From a virus (taxonomy: Duplodnaviria; Heunggongvirae; Uroviricota; Caudoviricetes): 64,000 nucleotides of DNA. Shown here one piece after another: positions 1,261 through 63,093 of this stretch. Both the position numbers and the translations under genes were made by a program. Each line of letters begins with the position of its first letter. The stretch's first letter is position 1. The stretch lies in the IMG/VR virus record IMGVR_UViG_3300044878_000059, positions 1-64,000 of that record, one strand, 5' to 3'. The notes below the pieces were generated by a model. The model was not told where the DNA came from and did not search any database. It saw nothing but the letters and a program-made list of their open reading frames with translations.

Positions 1261-1504
1261 GAAGCTTGGTAATTTCTTGGGTTACCGGAAACCCAAGCGA
1301 TTGTTCAACCGCATTGTGAACCTTTTCATCACGCGACCCGAGATTTTCAAGAGTCATTTTGTAGTGTTCATCTTTGATCAGACAACCAACCGCACACATC
1401 TTGCCGTCGTCACCGCGATATCCACAGATACTGCCGATCATCGATCTAGCTTTCTGTTGCGTCAGGTGGTCACGAATCTTTTCCGAGATTTCGGTGAGTG
1501 TCAT
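1142..1504 (-). CDS. hypothetical protein, paralogue family A (120 aa)
   Basis: shares IRDHLTxQxAR...MCAVGCLIK.EHY motif with the adjacent 1504..1965 gene. Confidence 0.45.
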   Translation of the reverse strand: MTLTEISEKIRDHLTQQKARSMIGSICGYRGDDGKMCAVGCLIKDEHYKMTLENLGSRDEKVHNAVEQSLGFPVTQEITKLLGDWQYYHDRTDYEFWASGSGTLSPAVYHDKLMGKLQSV

Positions 1505-2523: not shown

Positions 2524-2718
2524 TTAAACCAGTTTCATGATGTGACCTACCCACAGGGCAAGACCAAACACACCGATGATCATGTTCAGGATCATTTCAA
2601 CCATGTCGGCTTTGTGGTTGTACATGATGAAGGTTTTCGGTGGTCGGTGCAGCCGTTCCAAGCCGTAGGAAAACCGCATCAGGAAGATCACCGTAACGAC
2701 AGCCACGTAATAAATCAT
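2524..2718 (-). CDS. small membrane protein (2 predicted TM helices)
   Basis: two hydrophobic stretches in 64 aa. Confidence 0.4.
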   Translation of the reverse strand: MIYYVAVVTVIFLMRFSYGLERLHRPPKTFIMYNHKADMVEMILNMIIGVFGLALWVGHIMKLV

Positions 2719-16699: not shown

Positions 16700-16960
16700 T
16701 CACTTGCAAAACAGTTCGAACAGAGCCGGTTTGATTAAATTTTGTTCATGATGCTCGAACCAACCCATGGGCGGTTTGTCTGCATGAATCAACAAACAGA
16801 ACGGAAGGTCATCGGGTGTCCAATACATCATGGCGTAACCGTGATATCCGAAGCCAATGCCAGAGTATCTGGTTACGTCCATGAGATATTTGGTAACGAA
16901 AGACCCCCGCCGTTCCTCGACAGGGGTATAGATCATGCTGCGTCGATCAGGTTCAACCAC
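16700..16960 (-). CDS. hypothetical protein (86 aa)
   Basis: ORF. Confidence 0.35.
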   Translation of the reverse strand: MVEPDRRSMIYTPVEERRGSFVTKYLMDVTRYSGIGFGYHGYAMMYWTPDDLPFCLLIHADKPPMGWFEHHEQNLIKPALFELFCK

Positions 16961-17988
16961 TGACCACGGATGGTCAACGCGGTGTGGGCACCGACACGCT
17001 TAGCCAGCAACGACCAGTTTTCATCTTCGGTCAGCTTGTAGCCTTCGTCTTTCTCGAAGTCTTCCAGAGCATCACGGGTCAGATCACCTTGCAAACGCCC
17101 GAAGTCCTTCTGGGTGATTGTGCCGATCTTTGATACAACCGCGTTCAGACGGTTGGTGTTGATGTACGAACAGATTTTGTCCAGCTTGGCTTGGGTTTCT
17201 TCGTCCAGAGTCGCAGCCGTCTTGATCTTGACTTCCTGTTCTTTCTCGTTGAACAGCTTGTTCTTCTGTTTCAGGATCACACGTTCGCCGTTGTCGGTAC
17301 GGTAATCGTCGGTGTAACCACGGATCACAAAGCCTTCGCCGTAGTCAGCTTCGGTACGGGTATGATTTTCATCAATCCCGAAGGCCGCTGGAACCTTGGT
17401 GTAGATCAACGGATCGATTTTGATCAGTTCTTCCAGCGTGCCGATGGCGATAACCGGTGCGGTTTTCAGATGACGGTTGCTGTTCGGTTCCATGAAGTTC
17501 GCGTCTTCCAACAGTTCTTGGATGTCAGCAAACGGAATGTAGCGAGCAACGCCGGTATCGAATTCCAGACGGATATCAAACACCATGAATTCGTTATCAG
17601 GGTGGTAGTTCATGCCGGACTGAACCTGCTTGGCACCAGTGTTGGTGACGCCTTGGTAACGACCACCGAAGATTTCACCGTAGACCGTCATCAGTTTCAG
17701 GGACGGGAACGAATCTTTGACCATTTCATAAATGGTACGGATGGTTGGTTCGTAACGGCTGTAGAAGCGGGTGTGGCCGTAGAACGTTTCGAGTTCGCTG
17801 ATCAGACCAGAACGTTTTGCAACGCGGGTCTTGCTGTCATCCATCACGAACGCGAAGTTAGCACCATGGATTTTTTCCACGGCGACAAGCACGTTGTTGC
17901 CAACTGCGAACGCGCATTTGTCCAAGAACGCTTGACGGTAAGAGTTCTCGATGGAGTTGTATTTGGTAAAAACGATTTTGTCGCTCAC
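16933..17988 (-). CDS. rnlB: RNA ligase 2 (T4 RnlB-like)
   Basis: KIHGANF motif I (KxHG); colinear with T4 Rnl2. Confidence 0.8.
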   Translation of the reverse strand: MSDKIVFTKYNSIENSYRQAFLDKCAFAVGNNVLVAVEKIHGANFAFVMDDSKTRVAKRSGLISELETFYGHTRFYSRYEPTIRTIYEMVKDSFPSLKLMTVYGEIFGGRYQGVTNTGAKQVQSGMNYHPDNEFMVFDIRLEFDTGVARYIPFADIQELLEDANFMEPNSNRHLKTAPVIAIGTLEELIKIDPLIYTKVPAAFGIDENHTRTEADYGEGFVIRGYTDDYRTDNGERVILKQKNKLFNEKEQEVKIKTAATLDEETQAKLDKICSYINTNRLNAVVSKIGTITQKDFGRLQGDLTRDALEDFEKDEGYKLTEDENWSLLAKRVGAHTALTIRGQWLNLIDAA

Positions 17989-18362: not shown

Positions 18363-18652
18363 TCGTCGATATCAGGTTCCAGCTTTTCGTACAATTCATC
18401 GTCATAAGACATCTGAACTTCGTTCTTGATTTTATCCAAGAAGAAATTAGACGCGAACATATCCATGTTCGTGATGAAGTCCGGCAAGCCGTCATCGTCG
18501 ATGGTGATAATGATGTGACGCTTGTTGTCCATGATCCGGTCAATAAGTTCGTCACGGTGTTCAATGTACTGCTCTGATACAGACGGCAGTGTTACTTTGG
18601 TGGCAAGTTTCGGCACCAAAGAAAACACATTGTTCTTTTTGTCGTCAGACAT
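18359..18652 (-). CDS. hypothetical acidic protein (97 aa)
   Basis: ORF. Confidence 0.4.
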   Translation of the reverse strand: MSDDKKNNVFSLVPKLATKVTLPSVSEQYIEHRDELIDRIMDNKRHIIITIDDDGLPDFITNMDMFASNFFLDKIKNEVQMSYDDELYEKLEPDIDE

Positions 18653-19515
18653 TAGAAGTTACCAAGTTGAACTTGGTAGCAACGCAGCCCCATTGCCCGC
18701 CACATCGCAACAACTTGGTTGCGGTCGTCGAATACACCCTTGACGTTGTAGAACGGATCGATATCGCGATGGTAGATATCGTGCTTGATGATCGAATCAC
18801 GCACTGACGATCCCGCAGGACGCATCAGAAGCTGATCAAACGGCATGTCGTACTCATCCATCCACCGTTCGGTTTCCGCACGGCATACAGCGTCACGGCC
18901 ACTTACAACGATGATATGGTTACCAGCGTCGGAAAGCGTTTGAGCCATTTCGATCACGTCGTTGTATGGAGCGTCTTTGCCGACTTTCTTCCAGTCGAAC
19001 GGCCCACGAACGCCTTCCATGTTTGCAATGGTTCCGTCGATGTCAAAGACAAAGGCCGGGGTGCCACCGTCAGCATTGGTGTTCTGCAACGGGAACTGTT
19101 CGCGGTACTCGGTATAGAACCGGGTTACAACTTTGTCGTCTACCACTTTGGACTGTTCATCACGATTACGGTTACGTTCGATCAGATCATCCAAGAGCAA
19201 ATTCGCTCCAACATGGATGACATCAACTTCCGAACCCATGGACGAACAGAAGCGAATCCATTTGTTACGAGTTTCTTCGTTGATGCAAGTGTCAGAGATA
19301 ACAATGTTTTTACCAGCAAGTAATGCTCTACGCGCACGTTCAATTTGAACTGCCGTAACTTTGTTTTCATCAATGTTGCCGCCGTACCAAACACCGTAAA
19401 GCTCCATCCGAATAAGGTCACGCTCAAGTTGAACATAACCTTTATTCACAAATTGACGGGCGAGGGTCGATTTACCAGAACCCGGTACACCCATCAAGAT
19501 TTTAGTTTTCCGCAC
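18652..19515 (-). CDS. pseT: polynucleotide 5'-kinase / 3'-phosphatase
   Basis: P-loop GVPGSGKST and HAD phosphatase motif FDIDGT; colinear with T4 Pnk. Confidence 0.8.
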   Translation of the reverse strand: MRKTKILMGVPGSGKSTLARQFVNKGYVQLERDLIRMELYGVWYGGNIDENKVTAVQIERARRALLAGKNIVISDTCINEETRNKWIRFCSSMGSEVDVIHVGANLLLDDLIERNRNRDEQSKVVDDKVVTRFYTEYREQFPLQNTNADGGTPAFVFDIDGTIANMEGVRGPFDWKKVGKDAPYNDVIEMAQTLSDAGNHIIVVSGRDAVCRAETERWMDEYDMPFDQLLMRPAGSSVRDSIIKHDIYHRDIDPFYNVKGVFDDRNQVVAMWRAMGLRCYQVQLGNF

Positions 19516-41863: not shown

Positions 41864-42241
41864 TTAGATCAGGATTTTCAGCACTTCGCGTGCTTCGCTG
41901 ATCGCACCCAGACGAATCAAACGAATTGCAGTGTTCTTCAACACATCGTTTGGTTTTGGGGCAGCCTTAACCGGCTTCGTCGGTACATCATACCGGCTGA
42001 TCAGGTTGGCACCGCCGAGCGCGACCACGGTGTTACGTTCAAGATGACTGAATTGAGGTTCCAGTTCGGAATCGATGATCACGAACGATGCACGACCCAG
42101 CATATGCATGGTCAGCCAATCGGCAACGTCTTTTGCTTCTTTCAGGCCGCAGCCGGTTTGTTCGCGGAACTCTTTGATCCACCAGACTTTCTTGTCACCA
42201 ACAAAGCCATTTGTGCAAAACGCAGAAACCTTAAAACGCAT
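41864..42241 (-). CDS. protein with ribosomal L7/L12 C-terminal-domain-like segment
   Basis: IKEFREQTGCGLKEAKDVADWL resembles bL12 CTD (VKEVRxxTGLGLKEAKDLVE). Confidence 0.35.
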   Translation of the reverse strand: MRFKVSAFCTNGFVGDKKVWWIKEFREQTGCGLKEAKDVADWLTMHMLGRASFVIIDSELEPQFSHLERNTVVALGGANLISRYDVPTKPVKAAPKPNDVLKNTAIRLIRLGAISEAREVLKILI

Positions 42242-43002: not shown

Positions 43003-43260
43003 TTACCAGCGGCTGAATGCCAACTGGGCTGTAAAATACTTGTTTGATACATATTGGTTTCGGATCAACCGGCACAGTTCGTCCTTGCTGAACACGAATG
43101 GAACGATGTTGTTCGACAACCGCGATGGGTTGAAGAACCAAATTTCCACATCTTCCGGGCCAACCGCAGACCATGCGATTTGCCGCTGTAAACCATTGAT
43201 TTCGATGGCACCACACGAACGGGTCTGTAGTAGCTCCATCAATTCGGCGGTGCTAATCAT
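43003..43260 (-). CDS. hypothetical protein (start moved off tRNA)
   Basis: ORF N-terminus is tRNA sequence. Confidence 0.3.
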   Translation of the reverse strand: MISTAELMELLQTRSCGAIEINGLQRQIAWSAVGPEDVEIWFFNPSRLSNNIVPFVFSKDELCRLIRNQYVSNKYFTAQLAFSRW

Positions 43261-43275
43261 ATCAATCCTAAAATT

Positions 43276-43351
43276 TGGTGCGTCTGACGGGACTCGAACC
43301 CGTGGCACAGGAATTTAGAGTTCCCTGCTCTGCCAACTGAGCTACAGACGC
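43276..43351 (-). tRNA. tRNA with anticodon CUA (putative amber suppressor)
   Basis: clean cloverleaf: acceptor GCGTCTG/CAGACGC, D GCTC/GAGC, anticodon stem GGGAA/TTCCT, loop CTCTAAA (U33, A37), T ACGGG/TTCGAGT/CCCGT, A73, CCA. Confidence 0.6.
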
Positions 43352-43507
43352 TTTGGCTGGATACCGCCCCGATTCAGGCCGGGGAATTGAGGTCGCTGTC
43401 CTACCACTAGACGAACACCCCGCAGTATTGGGGTGTGCCGGAATCGAACCGACGTTAGCGACTGGAGGCTGAGTTGTATGCTGTCAGTATCCGGGTAGCT
43501 TTAAATT

Positions 43508-43760: not shown

Positions 43761-44267
43761 TCATTTGCCTGTCCACGATGGGTCGATGTCGTCGCCGTAT
43801 TCCTCGATGATGACGATTTTCCTGTCTGATATAAAGGACGTTGGCCCAAGCTCGATCTTCATATCCCCGATGTCATACGACAGGGTGATGTGTGGAATGA
43901 AGCTAGGATGATCCCACGTACCGCCGTGTTCCTTCATCAGTTCCGAGTGACGATTTGATAGAAAGGTACTGGCATAGGCTAGCACCAAGGCATTCTTACC
44001 GGAAGCGGTTTTGAACACCTTCAAATCGAATTCATTCGTATCTGAGGTTGGATTCACTGGGTACACACCGAATGGAACATAATTCGGCAGGGGTTTACGG
44101 CTGTACAGCAATGTGCTATGGAATTTTTCTGGATCAAGACGATTCGGCAAATTCAACATATCTTGCATGATCATTAAATCACGCACGGTTAATGGATCAA
44201 AACGCACCCCGGCGTATGTTCCATGAATCCCTTCGGTTAGGAAGGGAAGCATTTCTCTAAAATTCAT
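43761..44267 (-). CDS. 2H phosphoesterase (LigT/CPDase/Acb1-like)
   Basis: two HxT/S motifs (HSTLLY and HITLSY). Confidence 0.55.
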   Translation of the reverse strand: MNFREMLPFLTEGIHGTYAGVRFDPLTVRDLMIMQDMLNLPNRLDPEKFHSTLLYSRKPLPNYVPFGVYPVNPTSDTNEFDLKVFKTASGKNALVLAYASTFLSNRHSELMKEHGGTWDHPSFIPHITLSYDIGDMKIELGPTSFISDRKIVIIEEYGDDIDPSWTGK

Positions 44268-44278
44268 TAGTGGCCCTG

Positions 44279-44554
44279 TTAATAGGGTTTGAGATTATCA
44301 AACCCCATCTGTTTATCGACCATCTTCCCAGTCGGGAATATTTCATCCTGACTGGTTTTGACGGGGTACGTTCGGTTGTTGCCGACTCTGAAAAATACAC
44401 GTTGGCATTCCAGTTCAGATACCTTGACCGCTTCACCACCCTTATTTACAACTGTTCGGACGATGGCAACGAAAGGCATCTGTTGGAAGAACGGATTCGA
44501 TTGATCAAATGTTGACGACATCAATTTTTCTCCAAGTGTTGGTTCTGATTGCAC
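44279..44554 (-). CDS. hypothetical protein (91 aa)
   Basis: ORF, overlaps the next gene by 50 nt. Confidence 0.35.
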   Translation of the reverse strand: MQSEPTLGEKLMSSTFDQSNPFFQQMPFVAIVRTVVNKGGEAVKVSELECQRVFFRVGNNRTYPVKTSQDEIFPTGKMVDKQMGFDNLKPY

Positions 44555-47500
44555 CAGTAGCGTTCAGATACGGTCTGTTATCCAATGGAACATCCAGATT
44601 GATTTCAGACAGCCAAGGAATCCAACCCAATTGCAAGGTTTTGTTGAAAACCTCAGTTCGGATTGCATCACCGCTTGAGTTGTTTGGTGCATAGTTCAAG
44701 CACACAACATCAAACACATGTTCCTTGCGCAGTTCTTTCATCATTTCTGCAATGTTGTTGTTCCAATCGATTGCACCCGGATCGGTAATCAACTGGTAAG
44801 TTCCGGTATCGAAGTTGTAATCAGAGAACACAGATTCAGCCATTGAGTATGTAATACTCTTGACAATCTGGTCGTAGATACTGAAACCACGGTTCGCACA
44901 AAACATCTTGTCCGAATACTGAGTTTTCAGATCGTTGATAATTCCAGCCATACCGGCCTGATAATCAGCTCTGTTATACACGTCTACGGTGTCTACGGTG
45001 TCCATGAAGACCCCATCAGACTCCAACCCCATCTTGGTATAGGCTAATGAAACTGCTACGCCTGCAAGAGCTTGTGGAACGTCTACGTCGCTCGGATCGG
45101 TGGTGAATACAATCGCACCAGTCTTGAAATCGATTGTGTAGTGTTTGTTGATCGTGTAAACGAACCCGGTTGATGTATGACTAACCGTAATTGGCTCGCC
45201 GGAATCAATCGGATAGAAACTTGCACGAACACCAATCACACTACCGGTTGTAGTCGTATGCGAAGCCAACAGAACCCCGGTTTCAGTTTTCGGACTACCA
45301 ACACCAAATACCAAAGGCATGTAATGCTGTTGCAGTCGTTCCATCCAGCTACCGGCACCACGTTTCACCGCATCAATGTAATACGATCCCCAAATACCGT
45401 TGGCATCTGGTTTGTTCGAACCTACAGAGAAATCCTGACCCCAAGAGTTTTCAGCTTGTTGGTACTGTGGACATTTGGTGTTTGTCGGTGTGTATTTCGG
45501 ACATGCACTGTTTGTACAGGCCGATGTTGCGTTTCGTTGCCAGTTGTTTGCACTGGTGTATCCACCCGCACATGCACCGCCAGCCGATTGAGCGATATAA
45601 CCATCACGACTATCTTTCGTACATGCCGTACCGCAACGACCAGTTCCCGCTAGGTAATGGGCGTTTGACAATGCACAGGTCTTTTGACCAAACAGTCTTT
45701 GGTTATCGTTCTGACATTCGTTGACTTCACCGAAGTTGTAACCCTGCGACATGTAATAGGACGCATAACCACCCGGCCCCTGACCGTTACCGATTTGTGG
45801 GCTTTTGGTGCTTGAGTAATCCCAGATGTTCGCCGGTTCACCATCTTCTTCACCAAACGAAATGTAGTTGATTACTTTGATACCAAGGTCTTGAAGTTCC
45901 TTTACCTGCTTGCGGTTCAGTGCCAGTGGATCGGTAATCACAATGTCGTACTGTTTGAACTTCTCAAGGAAGCCAGCCGCGTAGCAACAAATGAACGTCG
46001 GGAATCGATATTCAACTTCGACTTGAGTTCCACCACGGTTATCATGGGGACTGGTCTTGTCTAGATTGAATGCGTTCTTATCTGGTGCATCAAATACAAC
46101 TTTACCATTCTGCAATCGAACATTTTTCACTGGGAACGGTGGAACCTGTTTCAGATCGTACTTAACCTGCAAAACCTCATCAACTTGCGTATAGTTCGCA
46201 GCCTCTGTGTAGTTCAGTGTGGTGAACAACGCACCAGAGTTAGCCACGATACGCACGATAACGCTGTTGGAACCAGCACCCAGACCGGTAGCCGTCATCA
46301 GAGAGAACTTCTGAATCAAGGTTGGATCGGATGTCGATACAGTCAGTGTTGTAACAAAGTTACCGAATGCGGCCTGACGGTTTGTGTTCGTCGCAGATGC
46401 GTTAGCACTCATTGTGATTGCAGTACCGTTGATTGCGGTAATGGTGGTTGGAACCGTGGCAAAACCGTTCATGACGATTTCCATACCGACCGTCAAGCCA
46501 GCATTCGATGGAACCGTTACTATCGGGCTACCGCTTGTAATCTTACAGCCGTTCAAGCTGATACCGTTTTTCATTACACGATATGCAGACAACCCGGAAT
46601 CTCGCCATACACGCATACTGAACGAATCACCGTAGTTGGTGAACTGCATCCATGAATACTTGTTAGCAGAACCCCAGCTTGTTTCAGGGAACGTTGCATC
46701 AGCCGCTTGTTCGTACCAAGACCCGTAATAGGTAATTGCACTTGAGTTGTAAGGTGCAGCAATGCTGTTACTGATTGGAACTGTACCGGCAGCATCTTTG
46801 ATGTAAGAACGTAGGTTCAAATCATAAGTCTTCAAGCCAGCAACTTCATTACCAATCAACTTCGGCAATAGGTTTAGTTCGAACGTACTGTTAGGCGACA
46901 AGTTACCAACAGATACAGTACCGATTGCAGTACCATTCGGATACGTTAGACCAGCATCTACGGTAATAGTTGTGTTGACAATACTATCAGCACCGATGTT
47001 CTTTAGTGTGAACTTCTTACCTTGCGGCATATCGGCGGATGGTGCAACCCAACCATTCGAACTTACAGACTTGTTGTTATACGAAAACGCTTTGATTCGA
47101 TGCATAATGAAGAATGCAGTCGATGTGTTATCGATACAGAACAGTTCTACGGTGTGAACACCATCAGACAAACCATCGGCAATTACGATATCGCGAATTT
47201 CCTGACCCAACGATGCCGGAACAATAGTCGTTGCGTTACATGTGATGACATCCACGGCAGTAGTCAACCCAGCGATCAGGGAAGGCTTTACACCGTCGAT
47301 TAGCACATAAGCCTTACCCATGCCGGGGTCAAGACCAATACGCACCGCTACGGCACTCCCAGACACGCTTACAGAGGCTTTACCTTTGATAGTGAATGCT
47401 CGGCTCTCCATAGTTCCAGTTGGATAACCCAAGTCGCCTTGGTCACGAACCCAATCCCCACCAGAATAGTTGGTAGAGTTGTAGGTGAATGAATTACTGA

Positions 47501-47612
47501 GAGTCAGTTGATCCAAGGAATATACGGTTGCCCGTACATCCTTGAAATCGTGACCTTCAATAACATCATCGGTAATTGCATGCAAATATGATTTTGTTAC
47601 GTTGAAGTTCAT
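44505..47612 (-). CDS. large tail fibre/spike-like protein with C-terminal TIM-barrel glycoside hydrolase (GH114-like) domain
   Basis: 1035 aa, beta-rich N-terminal two thirds, then a segment (FICCYAAGFLEKFKQYDIVITDP...VINYISFGEED) that reads like a GH114/endo-alpha-1,4-polygalactosaminidase-like hydrolase core, followed by a C-terminal Cys-rich region. Confidence 0.5.
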   Translation of the reverse strand: MNFNVTKSYLHAITDDVIEGHDFKDVRATVYSLDQLTLSNSFTYNSTNYSGGDWVRDQGDLGYPTGTMESRAFTIKGKASVSVSGSAVAVRIGLDPGMGKAYVLIDGVKPSLIAGLTTAVDVITCNATTIVPASLGQEIRDIVIADGLSDGVHTVELFCIDNTSTAFFIMHRIKAFSYNNKSVSSNGWVAPSADMPQGKKFTLKNIGADSIVNTTITVDAGLTYPNGTAIGTVSVGNLSPNSTFELNLLPKLIGNEVAGLKTYDLNLRSYIKDAAGTVPISNSIAAPYNSSAITYYGSWYEQAADATFPETSWGSANKYSWMQFTNYGDSFSMRVWRDSGLSAYRVMKNGISLNGCKITSGSPIVTVPSNAGLTVGMEIVMNGFATVPTTITAINGTAITMSANASATNTNRQAAFGNFVTTLTVSTSDPTLIQKFSLMTATGLGAGSNSVIVRIVANSGALFTTLNYTEAANYTQVDEVLQVKYDLKQVPPFPVKNVRLQNGKVVFDAPDKNAFNLDKTSPHDNRGGTQVEVEYRFPTFICCYAAGFLEKFKQYDIVITDPLALNRKQVKELQDLGIKVINYISFGEEDGEPANIWDYSSTKSPQIGNGQGPGGYASYYMSQGYNFGEVNECQNDNQRLFGQKTCALSNAHYLAGTGRCGTACTKDSRDGYIAQSAGGACAGGYTSANNWQRNATSACTNSACPKYTPTNTKCPQYQQAENSWGQDFSVGSNKPDANGIWGSYYIDAVKRGAGSWMERLQQHYMPLVFGVGSPKTETGVLLASHTTTTGSVIGVRASFYPIDSGEPITVSHTSTGFVYTINKHYTIDFKTGAIVFTTDPSDVDVPQALAGVAVSLAYTKMGLESDGVFMDTVDTVDVYNRADYQAGMAGIINDLKTQYSDKMFCANRGFSIYDQIVKSITYSMAESVFSDYNFDTGTYQLITDPGAIDWNNNIAEMMKELRKEHVFDVVCLNYAPNNSSGDAIRTEVFNKTLQLGWIPWLSEINLDVPLDNRPYLNATGAIRTNTWRKIDVVNI

Positions 47613-47613
47613 G

Positions 47614-49074
47614 TTATGCCAACTTTAAGTAAGTGAACTTGGAAGTTGCAGTTAATGCAGATGCTCCATTGTTCGTAATTTTCATAGACAGTGCTGGACT
47701 TCCGGCTTGTACATAGTACGAGAATCTGTCATTGAAGTTACCGGTAATCAACTGTGCTTTGTACAGAAGTGTCCCTGTTGCATCAATGCTGTTGTAGAAT
47801 TCAATGGTATAAGAACCAGCGGAAACCACATCAACTTCCAGTACCAAGTTGTTCGCTACCAATGCACCATTCAAGTTAACAATCGAAGACGCACCAACCG
47901 CCAAAGCAGTAGTTGTGTTAGTTGCAACTATAGGGGCTTGCATTGTACCGGTTGGGCCTGTGGCCCCGGCAGCACCAACTAGACTTGCAAGGAACACCGA
48001 AATAGAACCAGTGTTTCCGGCATCTAGCCAGATTTGATATGCAGACTTACCGTCAGCACCGTTACTACCATTTGTTCCGTTTGTACCAGCGGTTCCGGGT
48101 GTACCAATCAAACTGGTTAGGAACGCAGACAAAGAACCAGAGTTCCCGGCATCCAACCACAGTTGATAGGCGGATTTACCGTCTGCACCGTTGCTACCAT
48201 TGGTTCCATTAGTACCAGCCGTACCGGCAGCACCAATCAAACTTGCTAGGAACTGTTCTACGGTGCCAATATGACCCGCCGCAATCCATAGTTCGTATGC
48301 CGATTTACCGTCTGCGCCGTTACTACCATTGGTTCCATTAGTACCAGCCGTACCGGCAGCACCAATCAAACTGGTCAAAAATTGACCAACGGTTCCAGAG
48401 TTACCAGCATCTAGCCACAACTGGTATGCGGATTTACCGTCAGTACCATTTGTACCGGCTGGCCCCGGCCCGCCATCGAAGCCCGGATCACCTTTCAAAC
48501 CACGCGCACCGATCAGGCTTGCTAGGAACTGGTTGACAGTCCCGACGTTTCCTGCATCGATCCAGATTTGATAGGCCGATTTACCGGTTGCACCGATCAA
48601 TGATAAAATGAAATCCTGAATGGTTCCGGTGTGTCCAGCATCTAGCCAGATGTCATACGCGGATTTCCCGGTAGCACCTTTCAATGAGGCTAGGAACGCA
48701 GTTAGATCGCCCGAGTTACCGGCTTCAACCCATAGTTGATAGGCCGATTTACCGTTGGCACCGGCAGCACCGTTCGTACCATTTGTTCCGTTAGTCCCGT
48801 TGCGACCAATTAGACTGGTCAGGAAGTCGGTAATAGTTCCGAGGTTCCCGGCTTCAATCCAGATTTGATATGCGGACTTGCCGTCAATACCGGCAGCACC
48901 TTTCAAAGACGCCAAGTAATCGAATACAGTTCCGGTATGTCCAGCTTCAATCCAAACCTGATAGGCGGATTTCCCATCTGGCCCGCGTGGGCCGGGAATT
49001 CCACCATCATTTGGATATGTAATTGTGTTGCCGGATTCATCAACGAATACACCCGGCGAGCTTTGTTGTGTCAT
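47614..49074 (-). CDS. collagen-like repeat fibre protein
   Basis: about ten repeats of GKSAYQ[IL]W[IL]DAGN.G...FL.SLIG separated by G-X-Y (GTNGTNGSNGADG) triplets. Confidence 0.6.
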   Translation of the reverse strand: MTQQSSPGVFVDESGNTITYPNDGGIPGPRGPDGKSAYQVWIEAGHTGTVFDYLASLKGAAGIDGKSAYQIWIEAGNLGTITDFLTSLIGRNGTNGTNGTNGAAGANGKSAYQLWVEAGNSGDLTAFLASLKGATGKSAYDIWLDAGHTGTIQDFILSLIGATGKSAYQIWIDAGNVGTVNQFLASLIGARGLKGDPGFDGGPGPAGTNGTDGKSAYQLWLDAGNSGTVGQFLTSLIGAAGTAGTNGTNGSNGADGKSAYELWIAAGHIGTVEQFLASLIGAAGTAGTNGTNGSNGADGKSAYQLWLDAGNSGSLSAFLTSLIGTPGTAGTNGTNGSNGADGKSAYQIWLDAGNTGSISVFLASLVGAAGATGPTGTMQAPIVATNTTTALAVGASSIVNLNGALVANNLVLEVDVVSAGSYTIEFYNSIDATGTLLYKAQLITGNFNDRFSYYVQAGSPALSMKITNNGASALTATSKFTYLKLA

Positions 49075-49075
49075 T

Positions 49076-49954
49076 TCAACCCTTCATTTTGCGACCAACC
49101 CAGCGACCCTTTGAATCCATGATAAGTGGTTCAAGTACAGGCATCGAATCGATGATCAATGCAGTACCGATGATCGGGCGTTTGATGTTGACGTTGTTGT
49201 AATTGAATGCCAATGCTTCATCATTGATCAGGCATCCGCACTGTAAGCCCCAATACAGGCCGGTTGGGTTACCCCAGTAGTTGACCTTAAAGGTTTCGTG
49301 ATAATGTCCCTGAACAGCGTTCATGCCCATCTGTTGGCTAAGTTGGGTCACGTCGCTAGTCTTACCGTGATGGAAGTAGCAAAGCTGGCCGTTTGGCAGT
49401 TTGATAGTAAGTTCAAACGACCATTTCCAGTTCGGGCCTACACCCAGAACCTCGTTGTACGATTTGATATAATGCTTCGGAATCCCGTTGGATTTAGCCT
49501 TACGCCAGACCAAAGAACCATGGTTTGATTCAATGATATCCATCTTCGGAAACATTTGATACAACTGTGCGATCACGGCTTGGCTCTGACGCAATTCATC
49601 CCCGGCACTTGGCAAATCTGGGTCGTGGTCATGGAAGCTCAAGGCGTGTTTGTCCAGTTCATCACCGGTACAAATTACGCGGGTTGGGCGGTATTTCTTT
49701 TTCAGGTATGCAAGGAATTCCAGAGCGTCGGGGTGATGATACGGAATGTGCATATCACTGATGACCAGAATTCTATCATTGTTCTCGCTTGCAGCATCCA
49801 GCTTGCGCACGGTTGCTTTTTCAACTGGCTTACCGAACTCTTTGCGTAGGAAGTCTGATACTGTTGACTTTGGTTGCCCGACAGTTTCCGAAATACTGCG
49901 CCACGATAAGTTCTGTTTGGCTAATTCAACAGCCTTAGATTTCCATTCTTGCAT
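49076..49954 (-). CDS. HTH plus calcineurin-like metallophosphatase
   Basis: ILVISDMHIPYHH...GDELD...SNHG. Confidence 0.5.
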   Translation of the reverse strand: MQEWKSKAVELAKQNLSWRSISETVGQPKSTVSDFLRKEFGKPVEKATVRKLDAASENNDRILVISDMHIPYHHPDALEFLAYLKKKYRPTRVICTGDELDKHALSFHDHDPDLPSAGDELRQSQAVIAQLYQMFPKMDIIESNHGSLVWRKAKSNGIPKHYIKSYNEVLGVGPNWKWSFELTIKLPNGQLCYFHHGKTSDVTQLSQQMGMNAVQGHYHETFKVNYWGNPTGLYWGLQCGCLINDEALAFNYNNVNIKRPIIGTALIIDSMPVLEPLIMDSKGRWVGRKMKG

Positions 49955-50047: not shown

Positions 50048-50443
50048 TCAACTACGTGCGATGCTTGAAGCCAGTGATTTATCAAACTGACCCGCGTAGT
50101 TGGCATTGAGGTATTGCATCACCGCAGGAACACCAGCCAAACCGTTAGTCGCGATCAGTTCACGAATCTGGGGTTCGGTAAGTTGTTTCGGCAACAGTGC
50201 GTTCAGCACTTGGTTTTCGGTGTCAAGCTTTGGATTGGCACGATGTTTCAAACTTTCATCGTTGGACTTGATCAGTTTCTTGATCGCATCAACAACTTGT
50301 GCGTCTGTATAAACTTTGCCGGTACGCTTTTCAACGGTTTCGATTTCACCAATCAACAGATTGAGAATCGCAACTTCAATTGCACGGTCGGCAGATTTAC
50401 GGGCTTCGGTCTTTTGGACGCGAATTGTATCAATCAAGCTCAT
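50048..50443 (-). CDS. GatB/YqeY-domain protein
   Basis: length and helix pattern like YqeY (LPKQLTEPQIRELI). Confidence 0.45.
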   Translation of the reverse strand: MSLIDTIRVQKTEARKSADRAIEVAILNLLIGEIETVEKRTGKVYTDAQVVDAIKKLIKSNDESLKHRANPKLDTENQVLNALLPKQLTEPQIRELIATNGLAGVPAVMQYLNANYAGQFDKSLASSIARS

Positions 50444-57787: not shown

Positions 57788-57866
57788 TGGTGGGGTTTGA
57801 TGGATTTGCACCACCACCTTCCAGACTCGATGTCCGTCCGCACTCCTAATTGTGCTAAAACCCCAG
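57788..57866 (-). tRNA. tRNA-like, anticodon unresolved
   Basis: acceptor GGGGTTT/AAACCCC, D GCAC/GTGC, unusual T-loop TGCAAAT. Confidence 0.3.
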
Positions 57867-58013: not shown

Positions 58014-58096
58014 TGGTGGGGAGTGATGGATTTGAACCACCGACCTCATACCGCATTGCTGCGGGCTATTGCTCTACCAGACTGAGCTAACTCCCC
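58014..58096 (-). tRNA. tRNA, 83 nt, anticodon unresolved
   Basis: acceptor GGGGAGT/ACTCCCC, D GCTC/GAGC, T GGTGG/TTCAAAT/CCATC. Confidence 0.4.
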
Positions 58097-58484: not shown

Positions 58485-58559
58485 TGGTGGGAACAGATGG
58501 AATTTAACCATCATTTCTGGCGCGAAGCCCCGGTGTCCTAGACGTTAGACGACATTCCC
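58485..58559 (-). tRNA. tRNA-like, anticodon unresolved
   Basis: acceptor and T-arm GATGG/TTAAATT/CCATC fold; anticodon stem poor. Confidence 0.35.
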
Positions 58560-60747: not shown

Positions 60748-60823
60748 TGGTGCGTCCAAACGGTAACGATCCGTTCTCTATGGCTTTTCAGACCATCGCT
60801 TTCACCATGTAAGCTACAGACGC
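60748..60823 (-). tRNA. tRNA-Phe (GAA)
   Basis: loop CTGAAAA; acceptor GCGTCTG identical to the CUA tRNA. Confidence 0.7.
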
Positions 60824-60845
60824 ATAACAGAATGCATTTTTTTAA

Positions 60846-60915
60846 TAAGACGGACTCGAACCGAAACCTCCCAACGATCAAGTCGGGCGCTCTAACCAAT
60901 TAAGCTATATTCCTT
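60846..60915 (-). tRNA. tRNA remnant or pseudo-tRNA
   Basis: good D-arm TAGCTTAATTGGTTAGAGC, weak T-stem, no matching acceptor 3' strand. Confidence 0.25.
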
Positions 60916-61689: not shown

Positions 61690-63093
61690 TTATTGCCAGT
61701 CGTAACGTGGAACTTGCAGGGTTTCCAACATCATGGACAGAGGGGTTACCTCTGGGACTTCGGTTTGAGCCAAAATCGACTTCATGATTGCTGGGCTGAA
61801 ACCCGTTACCATTGCGGTTCCGCCGACGCCGAAGCTGACAGGCAGGTTACCGAACGCAGAGTTCATGTTCCAGAAGATGATGTCAGGACGTTTGTAGCCA
61901 GCGGCTTCGTACATCCGATCAATCATCGTAAACGCAGAATCGTTGTTGAAACGACCATCCACTTGGTTGAACTGCATATCCGACCAAAGAATGATCTTGG
62001 TTGGCATGTCAGCTACCGGAACCTTGTGTTTCACCGCCGCTTGCAGGATCAGTTCAAACGACTTTTGCAGGTTGGTAGAACCACCCCACGGTGCGGATTG
62101 TGTCTTGTAAACACGATCACGCAGAGTCTTACAATCCGACAGATCAACCCAAGTAGGGTTGTTGTGGAACGTAATGAATTGATCTTTGAAGATGCCCTTG
62201 GAACGCTCTGCAACGTACATACCCAGCGATACCGCCACGTCCATACAGGTCAGACCTTTGGAGGCGTAGTAGCTGCTCATAGAGCCGGACACGTCCACGA
62301 TGCCAAGCAGGTTCTCTTTCGAGTCTGCGAGGTAATCCGGCAGTGCCTTCCACTGTGCATCAGCAACACCTTCTACGCCGCCGTTCAAACTGCGAAGAAC
62401 GTCGTAAGGGAAGATCGCACCGGCATTGACTTTGGTTTTACCCGTAGCCAGACCGTCGATCCACTCTTGGTACGCTTCTGGAGCATTACGCTTGAACGCA
62501 CGTTGGTAGTTCTTCGAAGCAACCGATGGGAGCTTGCTGAAATCGATTTGATTCCATTGCTGCGCGCACATCTTCTGTTCCACGGTTTTGGACAGCGGAA
62601 CGATCAGCTTGCGGTAACCACGCGGGGTCAACTCAAACTGGTTCATGAAGAACCGGGAATACTTCTTGCCTTCACGCGGCATCCACTTGGCACACAGACC
62701 GTTACCGTCAAGCAGAGCTTGTGCAACAATCTCAGTGATGATGAAGTCCAGCGTTTCGGACAGACCGATCAGTTGCCACAGGTCATCCCAACGACCCACT
62801 TCTGGGATTTTGGCGACGATACGACCGGCAACGTTGATGTCGGTTTCACGAACAACTTGGTTCATGAGAGAACGGAACGTTTGACGTTCGCCAGCACCAC
62901 CGCGAATATCGCGAACCCACAACAGTTGACGAACTGCCAAATCGGCATCTTCGTTGTACGCTTTGCGGAACTGAGCCGACAGGTCAAGCCCACGGGCCGA
63001 ACCGATCTTGGCGAACAGATCGACGTTTGCATTGAAGCTGGATTTCTGCGCTGCCATACCATTGGTGGTACGGGTCAAATTGGTTTTGCTCAT
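61690..63093 (-). CDS. vWA-domain protein with N-terminal helical domain (Ro60/TROVE-like architecture)
   Basis: MIDAS motif VDVSGSMSS in the C-terminal half; 250-aa helical N-terminal domain. Confidence 0.5.
   Translation of the reverse strand: MSKTNLTRTTNGMAAQKSSFNANVDLFAKIGSARGLDLSAQFRKAYNEDADLAVRQLLWVRDIRGGAGERQTFRSLMNQVVRETDINVAGRIVAKIPEVGRWDDLWQLIGLSETLDFIITEIVAQALLDGNGLCAKWMPREGKKYSRFFMNQFELTPRGYRKLIVPLSKTVEQKMCAQQWNQIDFSKLPSVASKNYQRAFKRNAPEAYQEWIDGLATGKTKVNAGAIFPYDVLRSLNGGVEGVADAQWKALPDYLADSKENLLGIVDVSGSMSSYYASKGLTCMDVAVSLGMYVAERSKGIFKDQFITFHNNPTWVDLSDCKTLRDRVYKTQSAPWGGSTNLQKSFELILQAAVKHKVPVADMPTKIILWSDMQFNQVDGRFNNDSAFTMIDRMYEAAGYKRPDIIFWNMNSAFGNLPVSFGVGGTAMVTGFSPAIMKSILAQTEVPEVTPLSMMLETLQVPRYDWQ

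Follow-up and report, generated by a model that had tools for sequence, protein, structure and literature searches.

A conserved tRNA gene with a CUA anticodon, predicted to be an amber suppressor, in T4-like phages that appear to use the standard genetic code

The DNA analyzed here, a stretch of 64,000 nucleotides from a tailed phage in IMG/VR (called the window in this paper), carries a tRNA gene with the anticodon CUA, complementary to the amber stop codon UAG. The gene is real and is a predicted amber suppressor, and on sequence grounds it is probably functional. It lies on the minus strand, which the first-pass annotation of this DNA had left unstated. We consider it moderately probable that the gene encodes a functional tRNA that decodes UAG in a T4-like phage otherwise using the standard code. 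The positions of the gene, its parts, its orthologues and several other features are listed in Table 1.

ARAGORN placed the anticodon cta at tRNA position 34 of the 76-nt gene. The Rfam tRNA model RF00005 matched 43279..43351 on the minus strand over its full length (model positions 1–71) with a score of 69.1 bits (E 5.7e-13), compared with a gathering score of 29, ranking the gene third by bits among the 31 RF00005 matches in the window. Read on the minus strand, the sequence is GCGTCTG-TA-GCTC-AGTTGGCA-GAGC-A-GGGAA-CTCTAAA-TTCCT-GTGCC-ACGGG-TTCGAGT-CCCGT-CAGACGC-A-CCA. It comprises an acceptor stem (GCGTCTG/CAGACGC) followed by U8 and A9, a D stem (GCTC/GAGC) closed by the 8-nt loop AGTTGGCA that includes G18 G19, a 5-bp anticodon stem (GGGAA/TTCCT), an anticodon loop (CTCTAAA) with U33, C34 U35 A36 and A37 A38, a 5-nt variable loop (GTGCC) and a T arm (ACGGG-TTCGAGT-CCCGT). 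U8, A14, G18G19, U33, T54-T55-C56 and A58 are all present in the sequence. ARAGORN and Infernal agreed on the CUA register of the 7-nt loop, in which U33 precedes the anticodon and a purine follows it at position 37, and there was no sign of a pseudogene. Each element of the clean cloverleaf described in the first-pass annotation was thereby found in the sequence. The Rfam E-value, together with the covariation among homologues described below, places the gene far beyond chance.

ARAGORN gave this gene the label "tRNA-Pyl", which it derives from the anticodon alone. The CUA anticodon is also all that favors a pyrrolysine tRNA. In tRNA-Pyl, the anticodon stem is 6 bp long, the variable loop 3 nt and the D loop small, and both G18G19 and T-psi-C are missing. 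The gene described here, by contrast, has G18 G19 and T54 T55 C56, and its anticodon stem measures 5 bp, its variable loop 5 nt and its D loop 8 nt. Furthermore, no PylS or PylBCD is annotated in the related phage Milchi. The structure refutes this identity, and we give it practically no probability.

Table 1. Positions of the CUA tRNA gene, its parts and orthologues, and other features of the window.
Feature	Position	Strand	Remarks
CUA tRNA gene	43276..43351	minus	76 nt, class I cloverleaf, encoded CCA; ARAGORN and RF00005
Anticodon loop CUCUAAA and closing A31-U39 pair	43312..43322	minus	loop (tRNA positions 32–38) at 43314..43320
Anticodon C34 U35 A36	43316..43318	minus	from the sequence
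Discriminator A73 and genome-encoded CCA	43276..43279	minus	CCA itself at 43276..43278
85-aa ORF	43003..43260	minus	starts 15 nt downstream of the tRNA 3' end; AGGA, then ATG
Topoisomerase II subunit, 432 aa	22377..23675	minus	TAG-terminated; one of just two in the window
Hypothetical protein, 93 aa	40893..41174	minus	TAG-terminated; second of two in the window
Milchi orthologue (cta)	L001 19321..19396; PQ464597 59324..59396		annotated "tRNA-OTHER, suppressor tRNA"
Astolliot orthologue (cta)	L002 19156..19231; OM982621 59155..59232		annotated "tRNA-Leu"
L003 orthologue (cta)	L003 6783..6858

The window comes from a T4-like myovirus, of which it represents the region with the replication and tRNA genes. 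PHROG matches included a family-B DNA polymerase, topoisomerase II, a DnaB-like helicase, an SbcC-like gp46 homologue, a Dda-type helicase and NAMPT. The GC content is 47%, and all of the long genes are on the minus strand, as are all 30 tRNA genes called by ARAGORN. The CUA tRNA is phage-encoded, as the first-pass annotation had it, and lies inside a large tRNA array. A near-identity DNA search with the 3 kb around the CUA tRNA gave no match among deposited phages, and relatives were reached solely through a protein search with the DNA polymerase. By this measure, the nearest deposited genomes were those of the Pseudomonas phages Astolliot (76.7% identity) and Milchi (72.9%), with all others at 44% or less. 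Both phages are cultured and grow on Pseudomonas. A 183-kb IMG/VR contig, L003, is closer, with a gp55 that is 94% identical and flanking DNA that is 76–88% identical.

The CUA tRNA sits in a string of genes on the same strand, directly downstream of other RNA genes. The 85-aa ORF that follows it had no Pfam match; in Milchi, a syntenic 85-aa CDS comes directly after the suppressor tRNA. Scans for promoters, terminators and T4 late promoters gave results at or below chance. Just upstream of the pair formed by tRNA-His and the CUA tRNA is a homologue of the anti-CBASS protein Acb1 (43761..44267, minus strand; Pfam, 110.8 bits), the Milchi orthologue of which carries the depositors' label "RNA ligase". 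A gene for a 125-aa protein (41864..42241, minus strand) separates tRNA-Cys from the CUA tRNA; its product narrowly missed the cutoff for the C-terminal domain of ribosomal L7/L12 (25.8 bits, cutoff 25.9), with only 28 residues aligned.

A tRNA with a CUA anticodon was found at the same position and in the same gene order in Milchi, Astolliot and L003, scoring 64.9–66.5 bits against RF00005. As in the window, the Milchi and Astolliot copies follow tRNA-Leu(caa), tRNA-Cys and small ORFs, adjoin the Acb1 gene on the same strand, and have CUA, A73, CCA and the pairs G1-C72/C2-G71; A73 and CCA are kept in all four clade orthologues. These two copies differ from that of the window in overall sequence (72–78% identity) and in the D arm, which is GCCA/AGGC with an A13-A22 mismatch rather than GCTC/GAGC; unlike these two phages, the window has an upstream tRNA-His and a 156-nt tRNA-like element. 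Compared with its three orthologues, the window gene is 72–79% identical, within the 55–99% range of the other orthologous tRNAs. Against L003, its identity is 79%, similar to that of the flanks (76–88%) and of the other tRNAs (72–99%). One gene type has thus been variously labeled "tRNA-Pyl", "tRNA-Leu" and "tRNA-OTHER"; the "tRNA-Leu" label in Astolliot and the "tRNA-Pyl" label on a CUA tRNA of the Rhizobium phage RHph_I1_18 are annotation artefacts.

In an alignment of the four clade orthologues, 96.4% of the cloverleaf cells were paired and 7 of the 21 pairs had changed on both sides, including the acceptor pairs 3-70, 4-69, 6-67 and 7-66. None of 500 shuffles matched this result, and slid alignments paired only 29–50%. 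When ten CUA tRNAs were aligned, 97.1% of the cells were paired and 15 of the 21 pairs had changed on both sides. U33, CUA, A37, A38 and A31-U39 were invariant in all 20 aligned CUA tRNAs, a set that was partly retrieved with a pattern that fixes this arm, and the loop consensus was YUCUAAA. The compensatory stem changes and the fixed anticodon loop indicate that, across the clade, purifying selection has preserved the gene as a tRNA bearing a CUA anticodon.

These observations bear on the possibility that the gene is a neutral passenger, borne by the array without effect since it is either uncharged or beaten by RF1 at UAG. No target or phenotype is known for the tRNA, and phage tRNA arrays turn over fast; for example, the tRNA-Ser genes of L003 are missing from the window. 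On the other hand, one slot has been kept across phages with DNA polymerases just 73–77% identical, the stems show compensatory changes around an invariant anticodon loop, and the CUA tRNA is among the best-scoring tRNAs of each array by RF00005. We consider a neutral passenger unlikely.

A search with a degenerate anticodon-arm pattern found this type of CUA tRNA in at least 17 IMG/VR contigs of 46–388 kb, among which the acceptor stems, and even the discriminator bases, vary. One 62-kb contig (L008) has two CUA tRNAs about 1.3 kb apart (1291..1368 and 2644..2718), one of the window's type and the other with an unrelated body. Together with the already annotated Milchi copy and the published cases of XacN1 and Summit, these contigs indicate that the first-pass annotation overstated the rarity of suppressor tRNAs in phages.

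The first-pass annotation had also suggested that the tRNA could imply stop-codon recoding, and had proposed comparing TAG with TAA and TGA use and looking for in-frame TAG in late genes. Genes were called with a simple codon-usage scorer, which was then rerun with TAG as a sense codon. With code 11, 79 genes were called in the window, covering 81% of it; the stop codon was TAA in 39, TGA in 38 and TAG in 2. For Milchi, the complete genome of which has 174,859 bp, 249 genes were called, with TAA in 149, TGA in 94 and TAG in 6, and coding coverage was 81–86% over the two sequences. TAG is therefore rare as a stop codon in both, at 2 of 79 and 6 of 249 genes. The long genes of the window, like those of the whole Milchi genome, had no internal in-frame TAG, and the Milchi portal, capsid, sheath, baseplate and lysis genes were intact in the standard code. 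Calling with TAG as sense added just spurious 5' extensions and 3' tails of at most 16 codons in either sequence. No release factor (including RF2) or aminoacyl-tRNA synthetase was found in the Milchi annotation or among the window proteins that were scanned. Two other lines of inquiry were discarded. Totals of stop-to-stop ORFs under alternative codes were uninformative, being dominated by antisense noise. In L004, another contig with the same tRNA type, frames of 560–620 codons that are open only with TAG as sense turned out to be antisense shadows of minus-strand genes, and they consequently give no clue to the inserted amino acid.

Recoding of TAG to an amino acid (code 15), typically in late genes as in crAss-like and Lak phages, was worth considering because a Sup-CTA tRNA is carried by 52% of predicted code-15 phages, and because recoding is often confined to late genes, which could fall outside the window. 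However, the complete genome of Milchi, which has an orthologous tRNA, lacks internal TAG in its long genes, late genes included, just as the long genes of the window do, and neither RF2 nor a synthetase is annotated in it. Recoding is largely refuted for the clade by these sequence comparisons, and for this phage we regard it as highly improbable. As far as the gene calls indicate, TAG is not recoded and the phage uses the standard code, which for its late genes is inferred from Milchi.

Alternatively, the tRNA could serve programmed readthrough and lengthen the protein at its C-terminus for some specific phage gene or genes ending in TAG, of which there are two in the window and six in Milchi. 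However, the readthrough tails of these genes are only 2–16 codons, and none has a coding score above zero. Tails after TAA or TGA reach the same lengths, and no backup-stop signal was evident. Readthrough would add about four residues to the topoisomerase II subunit (TAG, three codons, TAG and a further stop), and the tail of the 93-aa hypothetical protein is 10 codons with no coding signal. Nor are the TAG stops shared between orthologues: the topoisomerase subunit is the one TAG-ending window gene that has an orthologue in Milchi, where its stop is TAA, and, conversely, an HNH gene that ends in TAG in Milchi ends in TAA in the window. The published searches in XacN1 and Summit were likewise negative. 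We consider programmed readthrough very improbable. Taken together, the lack of internal TAG, the unshared TAG stops and the lack of release factor and synthetase genes in the Milchi annotation leave both recoding and programmed readthrough unsupported.

TAG ends 2.4–2.5% of genes in the window and Milchi, corresponding to 0.19–0.27 of what out-of-frame trinucleotides inside the genes would predict. For comparison, T4 lacks a CUA tRNA, and in its syntenic 50 kb TAG ends 7 of 80 genes (8.8%), or 0.58 of expectation; the difference between T4 and the window and Milchi combined gave p=0.014 by Fisher's test. In a 50-kb piece of Astolliot, 4 of 59 stops were TAG. The clade has a GC content of 45–47%, so that low GC fails to explain the depletion. 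The depletion is modest: T4 also under-uses TAG, the extra reduction is about 3-fold, and the counts are small. Such depletion would be expected if the CUA tRNA really does suppress UAG, and it fits this reading, short of proof.

The first-pass annotation had proposed that the gene arose by duplication and anticodon change from the tRNA-Phe(gaa) gene at 60748..60823 (minus strand), the acceptor stem of which it described as identical. The two genes do share the 5' acceptor strand GCGTCTG, but the 3' strands differ at two positions (TGGACGC in tRNA-Phe and CAGACGC in the CUA tRNA). The shared strand is moreover lost in the orthologues, which have GCAGCCA (L003), GCGTTCA (Milchi) and GCGTCTA (Astolliot), with acceptor stems that differ at four pairs. 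Over its whole length, the CUA tRNA is 68% identical to tRNA-Phe, less than to the tRNA-Ile (71%) and tRNA-Glu (70%) of the same genome. Recent duplication of the resident tRNA-Phe is thus not borne out, and the CUA tRNA is not close to any other tRNA of its own genome. In RHph_I1_18, a CUA tRNA (L013 3994..4071) shares the D arm and the exact anticodon arm of the window gene. It is unlike the Lys(CUU) and Gln(CUG) tRNAs beside it in that phage, and neither of these is close to the window CUA tRNA, leaving them rejected as parents as well.

For amino acid identity, we compared the tRNA, with the anticodon masked, to 20 E. coli isoacceptors. The best core match was E. coli pheV (0.76 vs 0.71). 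Full-length similarity gave a near tie between Asn (0.75), Phe (0.73) and Lys (0.73). As a control, the method recovered the right isotype for just 8 of the 27 ordinary window tRNAs. BLAST searches with the CUA tRNA matched mostly tRNA-Lys among phages and tRNA-Asn in E. coli. The identity set of E. coli PheRS consists of G10, A26, G27-C43, G28-C42, G44, U45, U20, U59, U60, A73 and G34 A35 A36. The CUA tRNA has G10, A26, G28-C42, G44, U45, U60, A73 and A36, and departs from the set in G27-U43, C20 and G59 and in having neither G34 nor A35. These comparisons are a weak hint that the anticodon stem and variable loop may be of the bacterial tRNA-Phe type. Phe, Lys and Gln are plausible candidate amino acids by E. 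coli identity rules.

Further genes of the window concern RNA or tRNA. An Rnl2-type RNA ligase (16933..17988) and a polynucleotide kinase-phosphatase (PNKP; 18652..19515), both on the minus strand, make up a T4-style tRNA repair pair that counters anticodon nucleases. Amid the tRNA genes lies a gene for a 131-aa YqeY-like protein (50048..50443, minus strand) of the GatB/YqeY tRNA-binding domain family (33 bits), annotated as "tRNA amidotransferase" in Milchi.

A non-decoding role for the CUA tRNA was also considered, in which it would act as a decoy or antidote against a tRNA-targeting defence (anticodon nucleases or PARIS-type systems) or as a processing signal. Phage tRNAs are known to counter tRNA-cleaving defences (PMC11464382), and the window also encodes the ligase, PNKP and Acb1. 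Against this, a CUA tRNA is unable to replace any depleted sense tRNA, and it is the anticodon loop that is most invariant, with the sequence one would predict for efficient decoding of UAG. We consider a non-decoding role quite improbable.

The 156 nt between tRNA-His and the CUA tRNA (43352..43507, minus strand) fold as a permuted tRNA-like module. The order of the parts is the 3' strand of an anticodon stem, a variable region, a T arm (GTCGG-TTCGATT-CCGGC), a closed 7-bp acceptor hairpin (ACACCCC/GGGGTGT), a D arm and the 5' strand of the anticodon stem; a terminal stem encloses all of the modules, and the minimum free energy is -50.3 kcal/mol (z -1.66). This order is that of YrlA (Y RNA-like) RNAs. 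However, the element had only a sub-threshold Rfam match and no GNCGAA motif, and no copy was found in the relatives or in IMG/VR. The sole candidate protein partner is a 467-aa protein (61690..63093, minus strand; PHROG 850, "RNA-binding protein"; Pfam DUF2828 and DUF7788), kept next to tRNA-Trp in Milchi and Astolliot. Its match to the Ro60 vWA domain was sub-threshold (19.9 bits), and it showed no sequence relation to solved Ro60 structures. The Y RNA idea was therefore rejected, and the element could just as well be what is left of a decayed tRNA dimer.

Several features of the surrounding array were noted in passing. About 4.8 kb (44268..49094), inserted in the early-gene and tRNA region, is missing from L003 and encodes a 1035-aa protein (PHROG 37372, function unknown) and a 486-aa tail-fibre protein with collagen-like repeats. 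Three Rfam tRNA matches on the minus strand, at 57791..57864, 58488..58559 and 60843..60911 (40.8, 34.8 and 29.9 bits), had no ARAGORN call, and a "tRNA-Ala(cgc)" at 58014..58096 (minus strand) has the odd length of 83 nt; these four may be degenerate or unusual tRNAs. No tRNA-Ser was found in the window; in L003, Milchi and Astolliot, tRNA-Ser lies between tRNA-Gly(gcc) and tRNA-Gln.

Efficient amber suppressors of E. coli, supF among them, have the context formed by the CUCUAAA loop and A31-U39, as do tRNAs modified by MiaA, and A36-A37-A38 is the determinant for i6A37 modification. supF, an E. coli tRNA-Tyr with a CUA anticodon, has the same loop and closing pair as the window CUA tRNA. In T4, the phage's tRNA cluster can carry suppressor alleles such as psu1+, a tRNA-Ser with a CUA anticodon. 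The anticodon stem and variable loop of the window tRNA also show some resemblance to those of E. coli tRNA-Phe (76% in the core), and an engineered tRNA-Phe(CUA) is another laboratory amber suppressor. However, supF, tRNA-Phe(CUA) and psu1+ are single-step mutants of sense tRNAs, while the window gene is natural, old and independently evolving, and it is of class I, unlike tRNA-Tyr and tRNA-Ser.

CUA tRNAs in phages with the standard code were already known. The Xanthomonas jumbo phage XacN1, in which 18 of 592 genes end in amber, and the Stenotrophomonas siphophage Summit both use the standard code and carry a CUA tRNA within a tRNA set, as does the window phage; no readthrough targets were found in either, and the function of their CUA tRNAs was stated as unknown. 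They belong to unrelated lineages, and the covariation within a clade and the T4 control for TAG use are added here. The paper describing Milchi does not discuss its suppressor tRNA. The code-15 crAss-like, Lak and related gut phages also encode a CUA tRNA, but they have in-frame TAG in late genes and some have RF2, neither of which is found in the Milchi clade. According to Borges et al., recoding probably starts from a state seen in some standard-code relatives, in which a stop codon has become depleted and a suppressor has been acquired, and the window phage matches this configuration in having the standard code, a depleted stop codon and the matching suppressor. What is new here is the selection across a clade, the T4-controlled TAG depletion at mid GC and the availability of testable cultured relatives.

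If the tRNA decodes UAG as we propose, it would be transcribed with its neighboring genes within long minus-strand early or middle transcripts. Host RNase P and 3' processing would release it, a host synthetase would charge it, and at UAG it would be a competitor of RF1. Because the TAG stops of the phage are few and followed by short tails resembling non-coding sequence, the cost of readthrough would fall mainly on UAG-terminated mRNAs of the host or of competitors, and the phage would gain tolerance of amber mutations. Both readthrough of host mRNAs and rescue of amber mutations are ideas already in the literature. The other role named in the first-pass annotation, manipulation of host translation, is a possible one.

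The published cases of phages that use the standard code and keep suppressor tRNAs end with "purpose unknown". To this, the present analysis adds purifying selection on such a gene across a clade, indicated by its pattern of substitutions, and TAG terminators about 3.5-fold rarer than in T4. Tentatively, and with more doubt than confidence, we suggest that the clade may represent a natural, stable "pre-recoding" state at mid GC, in which selection imposed by an efficient resident suppressor, rather than low GC, would have driven the purge of TAG to about 2% of terminators and the suppressor would act as a weapon on the UAG-ended mRNAs of host, defence or competitor genes, with the phage's own proteome insulated. 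The two cultured relatives, Milchi and Astolliot, make the role of the suppressor testable.
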